NCBI GenBank assembly: GCA_030141605.1
Contig: JAQGDQ010000258.1
Coordinates: 124,001 to 188,000 of the forward strand
Source: Tubiluchus corallicola
Lineage: Eukaryota > Animalia > Priapulida
Length of the DNA: 64,000 nucleotides
Direction: 5' to 3'
Every line of letters begins with the position of its first letter. Within the stretch, counting starts at the first letter, position 1. Both the position numbers and the translations under genes were made by a program. Positions 56,301-59,300 of the stretch are shown piece by piece. The notes below the pieces were generated by a model that saw only the letters and a list, made by a program, of their open reading frames with translations, was not told where the DNA came from and searched no databases.

Positions 56301-59300
56301 GCTTTCGACTAAATGCTTAAAATATCAGATTAAGTTAAACAGATGACCTAGTTATTCTTCATACCAGGCAATAAAAGGAAGGTGTTATCGTAACAAAATT
56401 ACTCATTGAAATTGTTAGTGGATGTGCAACTGCTGCCATAACATTTCGTTATCACATCATATTTTTCTTGTCACATTTTTAGCTCCTATCAAAATTAGAA
56501 TCTTCAAAAGGCAACGATGGTATAACTTTATATTATTTTGTGTACTAAGCTTTACAGTTTATTAGAAGCAATAGTTATAATGTTATTCAAACAGTAAAAG
56601 TTGTGCTGTAGTTATCGGCTTTGATTATAAGTCACTCATTGTGTGCTAGGAACTGTTGTGTCAGAGTAGTTAGTAAAGGCCATCCACTGGCTGTGCATCA
56701 CACTGCATCACAGCTGCTTACAAAAATTCATATTATGAAACTGTACTTGGGTTTTCACATCATCTCATATTTTCACCAAATTCACCTACTAAGCTGATTA
56801 AGCTGTTTCTAGTAGCACACAAATTAAAATATCTTAACCACAGATATTGTTTTTAAGAGTGTTTTAGATTATAAAATGATCACATCAGAAGACTGATTCA
56901 TTCCATTTGTTTTTCAATGCCATATATTTATAGGCATTTTTATTTGTGAGCAGTATCTTCTTCATGAAGCCTAGCAGAAAAAATAAGTACTAGGTTACTG
57001 GACCAACAAAGGATGCATGATTTTTGAAGTTTGAATTTGTGAACTTAAAAGTGCTATATTGCCATCTTTACTTTTGCATCATGTGTGAAAAACTCCTGTC
57101 ATTATAAAAGGGTCTAATGCTGACATCATCCCTGTATGCGCTAACGATGATTAATTAAGATTCTATACAAAAAATTGTTTCAAACGTCAACAGTTATAAG
57201 TAATATAATATGTATTTTTGACCATAGGTCAAATTGAAGTATGGTGTAAAAAGTTGTCCTGTTTTCCTGCATATATTTTGACTATATTTGTCTTACTTTT
57301 ACTCACAATTAATTGCATATTGTAAGGACAGAAATTGAGGCGGGTAAAAAATTTGCACAGTATTAAAACTGTTTATTGCTATGGTAACGACTGGTGATGG
57401 TTGTTGTGATGTTGGCAGATCTGTGACTTTGGTTTGGCGCGAGCAGTTGAGCCGGACAGAACCGGTTATCTGCTGACAGAGTATGTCGTAACACGTTGGT
57501 ACCGTGCTCCTGAAGTCATGCTAAACAGCCGTGGATACAACAAGCCTAGTATCCTTAAAACTGTTTCATTAGTATTCCGGACTTTCGTACCAGGGCTTGT
57601 TTTTTAATTAGTTCAACACATCTTGCATTGTGCATGTAATCTTTTTGTTTTCAAGTTCTCAATGTAAGTATGTTCTGGCTGGCAGCCAAATATTTTAGTA
57701 TTTTTCGATATGTACAAACTGATATATGTATAACATCAGCCTTGCACTTAACTCCTATTGGGAATTGAAAATGCATTTTTAATGCAGTTTGTCAGAGTTT
57801 ACGTGAATAGACACATCAGTTGTTTATTGTTCCTGAAGCAAATCATTCAATGAAACTTCATTTCCAGAAATAGGAAGACCATTAGGCAGTCTGAAAGTAT
57901 TTTCTAAATTTGCAGATGCATTCAGAAATCATTAATAATGTTTTCAAATAATTTTTCGAACTTCTTTTCTAAGTAAAAAACAGCTAGAATGTTAATTAAT
58001 TGTTTAATTACAAACAAATAGTTTGCAAAACAAGCAACTATTAGGAGGCAAGAGATTTGATATTTTTCGCAATTATGCAAGTGGGTCTATTTCAACATTA
58101 TATTTGATCAAGTTATGACTCAAAGTTTTAATTTAAAGAGAAGAATATTCAGTTTAAATTGGTTTTGTTTTCTATTTTTGTTAATTTTTTGATTGCTAGT
58201 GTTATAATTATCTGCTGCTGAATCTTGGTTGTTTTTTTCTATATTAATAGTTATCATAGCAGGACTGGGACTGGAAGTATGCTTTAGTATACTTCCATTC
58301 TGCTATTATAACTTTTATTATCTTATTGCTTGAGCCTTTGCTTTGCTTGTTTGGCTTGTTTTCTGGACAACACATTCACCATTCGTTACCATGTATATTG
58401 TTCATGATCTTATGATTTTTTTATTTTCTCATCCTCAAGATACCCATAACTTTTGCAAAATGCAAGACTTACCCACAGTTATGTGTCGTGCCATTTGTGG
58501 AGTTGCATATGGAAATTTCAAGTTGACTTTTCCTAATTTTTTGACAAAGTATTCATGCTGTGAATTTTGATATGTGTAAAATTTCATCTTGCATTGCAGT
58601 AATGATGAAATTAGAGATTGATTTGGGTCAACAATTTGCACAAATGGTTCTGATGCACATACAGTTTTCTGCAAAAACATTGTATGCTGAAGGAGAAAAA
58701 AGAAACGCACATAGTGCAAGTGAACTGAAGTCTTATAAACATCTTTACTAGGCACAGCTACATATAACCGTTTTCCTATCCCTTATTACGCAATTCCTGC
58801 ATTTTACATATTAAATGCTATTTTCATTTGCATCTAGATTTGTGACTTTGGTCTAGCAAGGGTAGCCGACCCTGAGCATGACCACACAGGCTTCTTAACT
58901 GAGTATGTTGCAACTCGCTGGTACCGTGCCCCCGAGATTATGCTCAACAGTAAAGGCTACACAAAGTCTAGTATCCTTGCTGAAGATTAAACTAGCAACC
59001 TCCTGCTACATTAGTTGCAAAATTAAAATGGAATAAAGCATTCATTTGTCTTTCTGATTACTTGAACATGTTAATAGGCATGTAGTTTCTTATAGTTGTA
59101 GGCAGAAATATAATTACTGCTCGATTTTTAATTAGTTTGCTTGTCTTTATTGGTCGTTATTCAGTTTTGCTTGGTTGATGCTCTAAGCATGTGTTAATGC
59201 TGTTAATATTGCTTTCTTTTGTAAGTACGGGACTCTTTGATGAATGTAGCATGACGTCTTCTCTGTTAACTGTTATATATTCCTTAAACGAGTCTCAGTT

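Follow-up and report, generated by a model that had tools for sequence, protein, structure and literature searches.

Tandem, probably mutually exclusive activation-segment exons in an ERK gene of Tubiluchus corallicola

The ERK gene and its two activation exons

The window, a stretch of 64,000 nucleotides from the priapulid Tubiluchus corallicola, carries on its forward strand an ERK1/2 gene with 10 coding exons, which we delineated by tblastn and manual splice reading between positions 38250 and 62759. The same two methods place exon 1 (38250–38368), which opens with the ATG, and exon 2 (45827–45953). Exon 3 (49202–49257) ends at a U12 donor, GTATCCTTT, according to a donor pattern scan and splice reading. 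The intron that follows (49258–55040) is an ordinary U12 GT-AG intron by splice reading and by the branch matrix described below, with the branch-like motif CTCTTAACC 11 nt upstream of its AG; the original prediction had overlooked this second U12 intron of the gene. Splice reading also defines exon 4 (55041–55134) and, together with the sequence itself, exon 5 (56096–56191), which encodes the HRD catalytic loop. At the other end of the gene, exons 7 (59299–59450), 8 (59954–60032), 9 (60356–60465) and 10 (62652–62759, with the stop codon) were placed in the same manner, and the joint between exons 9 and 10 is present in a contig from run X2 that is 90–95% identical to the window.

Between exons 5 and 7, the exon for the activation segment occurs twice. 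Exon 6a (57419–57548, 130 nt) encodes a divergent segment with an 11-residue loop, no PEHD and the sequence TEYVV, as judged from the sequence and from codon and segment comparisons, and exon 6b (58838–58970, 133 nt) encodes the canonical ERK activation segment by sequence, homology and segment comparison. The coordinates, lengths and phases originally proposed for the pair proved exact, with each exon preceded by an AG and followed by GTATCCTT. The predicted ERK has 357 residues with 6a and 358 with 6b, and both are open kinases. Both exons are 3n+1 in length and had been expected to break the frame if both or neither were included; the stops indeed fall at residue 209 when 6a and 6b are taken together and at residue 189 when both are skipped.

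The 6b form is 84–86% identical to full-length animal ERKs. Among structures, those of MAPK1 and MAPK3 come first as matches of 6a (E = 1e-15), and this similarity and its TEY assign it to ERK1/2. Compared with the fetched fragments, the gene is without the intron that vertebrates and insects have after NSK, and in a quick ERK tree of 48 rows it falls inside no well-supported group. Intron 1 holds a broken BEL/Pao LTR retrotransposon on the minus strand (39500–44110), with remnant pieces of DUF1759, aspartyl protease, RT, Peptidase_A17 and integrase. Farther out, an exon of a USP32-like gene lies on the minus strand at 4521–4706, oriented away from ERK (Pfam USP32_N, E = 1e-6).

Splice classes around exons 6a and 6b

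The pattern [GA]TATCCTT occurs at five sites on the forward strand of the 64 kb, and three of the five are ends of ERK exons (49258, 57549 and 58971). For the acceptor side, we built a U12 branch-site matrix on related loci, using 16 distinct acceptors. It scores the acceptor of exon 7 at 10.8 bits, with the site 10 nt before the exon, and those of exons 4, 6b and 6a at 3.9, −3.1 and −7.7, respectively; the matrix is rough, giving 4.2 at 30 nt to exon 5, whose acceptor is U2 by its upstream donor. From exon 5 to exon 7, a branch and an AG in range of each other occur at only two other places, one of them the 6a donor and the other inside 6b. These scores agree with the claim that the sole U12 branch and acceptor in this interval precede exon 7, and the exon 5 donor, which reads GTATTA (56192), is U2-type as had been stated.

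The intron between 6b and exon 7 (58971–59298) is of the U12 class at both ends, with the donor GTATCCTTGC, a strong branch site, TTCCTTAAAC, at 59280 and an AG-free zone of 4 nt before the AG at 59297–59298. Both exon 6 donors match the strict U12 consensus. Because the only U12 branch and acceptor precede exon 7, the intron between 6a and 6b (57549–58837), which pairs the U12 donor GTATCCTTAA with a U2-type acceptor lacking a U12 branch site, is a U12/U2 hybrid of the JNK type. The ordinary U12 intron at 49258–55040 suggests that the gene is a substrate of the minor spliceosome. The acceptor of 6b has a pyrimidine fraction of 0.70 and an AG-free zone of 78 nt, and that of 6a has a fraction of 0.45 and a zone of 56 nt, which makes it by pyrimidine content the weakest acceptor of a gene in which the others range from 0.55 to 0.75. 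TG-rich exon 6 acceptors are also present in the single-copy loci described below.

This layout matches that of the vertebrate JNK genes (MAPK8/9/10) as they are described in PMC1874599, a likeness that the original prediction had drawn. Both are MAP kinases in which tandem homologous exons of the same phases, with a U2 intron upstream and a full U12 intron downstream, are separated by an intron with a U12 5′ site and a U2-type 3′ end. The JNK hybrid intron is described as one that cannot be properly spliced, with the downstream exon being the default by virtue of its pyrimidine tract (PMC1874599), and U12 and U2 sites are reported to be used in a mutually exclusive way in three or more cases (PMC3584512). 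By analogy, the downstream exon of the ERK gene, which likewise has the stronger pyrimidine tract, is the likely default. The two systems differ in that here it is the DFG-TEY-APE exon that is duplicated, the exons are 3n+1 and the host is an invertebrate ERK1/2. The alternative exon of JNK is located downstream of the activation segment.

If the ERK gene behaves as JNK does, the major spliceosome would join exon 5 to either 6a or 6b, and the minor spliceosome would join the chosen exon 6 to exon 7. The hybrid intron would not be removable, and double or zero inclusion would lead to early stops. Incompatibility between the spliceosomes rules out the 6a–6b and 5–7 joints and no more; which of the two exons is taken must be set by something else. 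One could instead suppose that both isoforms are made and that exclusivity is mainly the work of RNA structure and NMD, with a U12-like 6a donor that is leaky to the major spliceosome and degradation of the 6a–6b joints. The early stops that follow from the 3n+1 lengths would serve such a scheme. Incompatibility is reported to explain five human MXE clusters (0.79%), whereas in 60% the lengths are not multiples of three (PMC5740500), and only about 5% of hybrid introns are reported to have responded to inhibition of the minor spliceosome (PMC11347168). We consider it improbable in the face of two strict U12 donors, the strong U12 branch before exon 7 and the description of the JNK hybrid as not properly spliced (PMC1874599).

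Two further complementarities within these introns may be due to chance. Positions 58998–59012 are complementary to 59243–59257 in the short U12 intron, and their pairing might draw the 6b donor and its branch site together. In the hybrid intron, a 12-mer is present twice and is complementary to a site between the copies (57619–57634, 58454–58467 and 58585–58596).

Age of the duplication and the protein encoded by 6a

Over 37 unambiguous aligned codons of 6a and 6b, pS is 0.85, which is saturated, and pN is 0.12 (Fisher P = 6e-12). About 15 synonymous codon differences had been claimed; we counted 16 among the 29 codons that specify the same amino acid. When we simulated 6b under purifying selection and 6a as neutral, none of 21,000 runs combined eight or fewer amino acid changes and no stop with at least 16 synonymous differences. 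These comparisons show that 6a was long constrained as a protein, the constraint being a record of past selection that is separate from present use. An old and selected duplication is thus well supported by the codons of the two exons.

The same data bear on the possibility that the second copy arose in the assembly, or is another allele or a recent segmental duplicate placed in tandem. The window derives from a single assembly, and run X1 may be that assembly's source sample. Nevertheless, one X1 record matches 57383–57533 with 0 differences and other X1 records cover the hybrid intron and 6b, the synonymous sites are saturated, and the flanks are no more alike than the best unrelated intron pairs, so that we regard an origin of this kind as exceedingly unlikely.

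The constraint also weighs on a mainly regulatory reading of 6a. Its U12 donor would bind U11/U12 and activate the upstream U2 acceptor, and the resulting retained-intron or truncated RNA would tune the level of ERK to minor-spliceosome activity, in a manner resembling a USSE. Reading through the 6a donor does reach a stop, at residue 226, and activation of an upstream U2 acceptor by U11, with decay, has been described (PMC3584512). A USSE, however, consists of tandem U12 5′ sites, and 6a is followed by one GTATCCTT, the next being 1422 nt away; moreover, constraint at the amino acid level along the exon is unexpected for an exon that serves decay only. We judge this regulatory role very improbable.

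A scan of metagenome contigs turned up 34 loci (L001–L034) whose activation exon has a U12 donor at its end. All are single copy (0/34 duplicated), and 18 reach from exon 5 as far as exon 7; the scan used an exact pattern that more divergent copies would escape, and the loci are redundant and probably represent few species. The next exon is included in 28 of them, with a U12 branch site before it, and in 27 of these 28 a further U12-type donor follows GKH, where L020 has a U2 donor. The window is without an intron after GKH, and we describe it as lost. Two mollusc models (P0179 and P0380) read through the end of exon 6 into S-I-L or N-I-L, which fits a U12 donor at that position. As the U12 donor and the U12 branch site of the next exon are present in unduplicated loci, the U12 intron appears to be older and the duplication restricted to a lineage. 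With a U12 donor already at the end of the exon, copying it once along with its flanking sequence would create the hybrid intron in a single step. A 30-nt match of 80% upstream of both exons (57330 and 58613) is marginal: 21 of 2000 shuffles do as well, and among 45 pairs that of exons 7 and 9 equals it.

Exon 6a keeps DFG, TEY and APE, and PEHD is absent. We compared its loop with 88 distinct ERK-like segments fetched for the purpose, among which the ERK loop is close to invariant: it has 12 residues in 86 of the 88 and the 6a length of 11 in none. Several of its changes after TEY are shared with other ERKs, I to V and K to R being common (23/88 and 26/88). A to V, T to N and S to P are rare (2/88, 3/88 and 1/88). 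In addition, L-L takes the place of F-L before TEY, with the F-to-L change two residues before the threonine. The PE/DHD motif has been linked to partner binding and nuclear entry (PMC4897767), and in inactive ERK2 the F-L residues before TEY are described as sitting in the DEF pocket (10.1101/2023.04.15.537040). From these features, a kinase made with 6a would still be phosphorylatable at TEY and would have altered regulation: loss of PEHD, the loop shorter by one residue and the F-to-L change may affect partner binding, DEF-pocket gating or activation kinetics.

Homologue searches with 6a, exon 1 and exon 9, a representative search and the listed members of 30 clusters (15 or fewer for each) yielded no 6a-like protein; clustering at 90% can mask an isoform. 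Only one of 658 fetched proteins (P0089) shares a 6a-type word, a single one, and the best identity to the full 6a segment is about 75–80%, nearly all of it to canonical loops. A relative carrying 6a was likewise not found in the protein searches or the 34 metagenome loci, a weak blank in collections where no close relative was found either. The X1 and X2 contigs cross no exon 6 junction, which says nothing on expression.

A predicted duplex over the 6a acceptor and the choice of exon

An inverted-repeat search revealed that positions 57381–57397 (−38 to −22 relative to the 6a acceptor) are complementary to 58376–58392 in the hybrid intron, a feature that the original prediction had likewise overlooked. 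This core has 16 Watson–Crick pairs out of 17, a level that one dinucleotide shuffle in 3000 attained for the 6a acceptor. The window contains no second 16/17 partner site, and the other nine ERK acceptors reach 12–15. The 6a acceptor has a single TAAC branch-like motif (A at 57387), and it lies within the predicted duplex. In a fold of 57330–58460 (1131 nt), the pairing extends to 26 pairs over −42 to −12, with pair probabilities of 0.91–1.0 in the core, such that the 5′ arm occupies 57377–57407 and the 3′ arm 58367–58395. Of the 31 acceptor bases, 24.8 are paired to far partners, the highest value among 10 acceptors; exon 8 reaches 19.3/31. The duplex was found post hoc, and 47 of 923 shuffles contain a 16/17 pair somewhere in the 3.1 kb. 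By energy it is equalled by 3 of 566 shuffles and by one other tile of the window, and long-range pairs with p > 0.9 appear in seven of nine control folds. On balance, we lean slightly towards the predicted duplex between 58367–58395 and the 6a branch and acceptor region being real.

Such a duplex would mask the branch region of 6a and place the exon and its donor in a loop, and 6b would win by default; 6a would be used if the U2 machinery commits first or if a factor opens the duplex. The duplex is therefore a candidate for exon choice, which incompatibility alone does not explain. A masked upstream acceptor would set the gene apart from JNK2, where choice is ascribed to the pyrimidine tract and Nova (PMC1874599; PMC3584512). 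Drosophila serpent and Dscam resemble it in having complementary elements within introns, some 1 kb from each other, that are predicted to steer choice among duplicated exons; there, competing docking and selector pairings are described (PMC4691838), whereas here a single repressive pairing would loop out 6a.

Because the 6a acceptor is weak and has a predicted pairing partner, 6b is suggested to be the default and 6a to be repressed or regulated. The original prediction of an old, selected duplication that provides two swappable segments is thus upheld as to age and selection, and a swap between equals is not what the acceptors suggest. The same two features would also suit a 6a that was long functional and is now silenced or nearly so, locked off by its weak, paired acceptor, in which case the signal of selection would be historical. 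Our searches found no 6a-like protein or locus elsewhere, and in about 24% of simulated runs an exon that has drifted neutrally by 0.1 substitutions per site still has its frame and splice signals. Yet the AG, the U12 donor, the frame and all catalytic motifs of 6a are intact, and regulated inclusion would more readily account for the retention of a distant complementary element. We consider a silenced 6a unlikely and take 6a to be probably still in use.

We favor, with reasonable though not high confidence, a gene with two tandem, anciently diverged activation exons that are likely mutually exclusive, the canonical 6b being the default and 6a giving a minor kinase that is likely regulated. 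The fuller proposal, in which two competent ERKs differ only in the activation segment, the hybrid intron imposes exclusivity and a duplex over the 6a branch point gates the choice, is more tentative, and we place it somewhat short of an even chance. The JNK-type switch is already known; what is new here is the more critical segment, that of activation, and the predicted RNA gate. If true, the gene would be an independent addition to the few known switches based on U12/U2 incompatibility and a testable example that joins a spliceosome lock with control of choice by RNA structure. A single ERK is described for invertebrates (PMC4897767), and the pair would likewise be a natural in-gene experiment on the role of PEHD and the F-L pair in activation by MEK, partner binding and localisation.

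Other alternative products of ERK1/2 genes are known. ERK1b and ERK1c, like the putative 6a form, are alternative ERK1/2 splice products; they are described as retaining intron 7, as unconserved and as low-level (PMC4897767), whereas 6a is a selected homologous exon that would replace the activation segment. A literature search conducted largely outside subscription journals returned no ERK or other kinase with alternative activation-loop exons. To this extent the statement that such an arrangement had not been described for ERK1/2 stands for the activation loop; it does not extend to the kinase domain, where spider ERKs have alternative exons.

In all three spider pairs that we compared (Parasteatoda XP_042901529/30, Argiope XP_055947641/2 and Larinioides CAL1277723/4; P0360/P0366, P0368/P0367 and P0234/P0361), the X1 and X2 isoforms are of equal length and swap one block of about 22 residues in the kinase domain. 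The block is conserved across several spider families and likely represents mutually exclusive exons. It follows the activation exon, beside the same intron position, and the activation loop is identical between the spider isoforms, unlike those of 6a and 6b. The corresponding segment is U12-flanked on both sides in 27 of the 28 unduplicated loci, and a hybrid lock need not apply to it. We take the alternative JNK exon to be homologous to this spider block. If the present reading is true, the priapulid gene would join JNK and spider ERK in marking the exons that flank ancestral MAPK U12 introns as a recurrent site of exon duplication. Three pairs of Diadema ERK isoforms differ at the C-terminus only.

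Two minor observations concern the wider setting. TGCATG, presumably an Rbfox-type motif, flanks 6a at 57014 and 57631, and with 20 sites on the forward strand its enrichment is not clear. In each of two metagenome fragments (P0476 and P0489), a shortened ERK-like TEY loop with exon-6-like bounds stands by itself; it may represent an alternative exon, or else a divergent paralogue, from another lineage.
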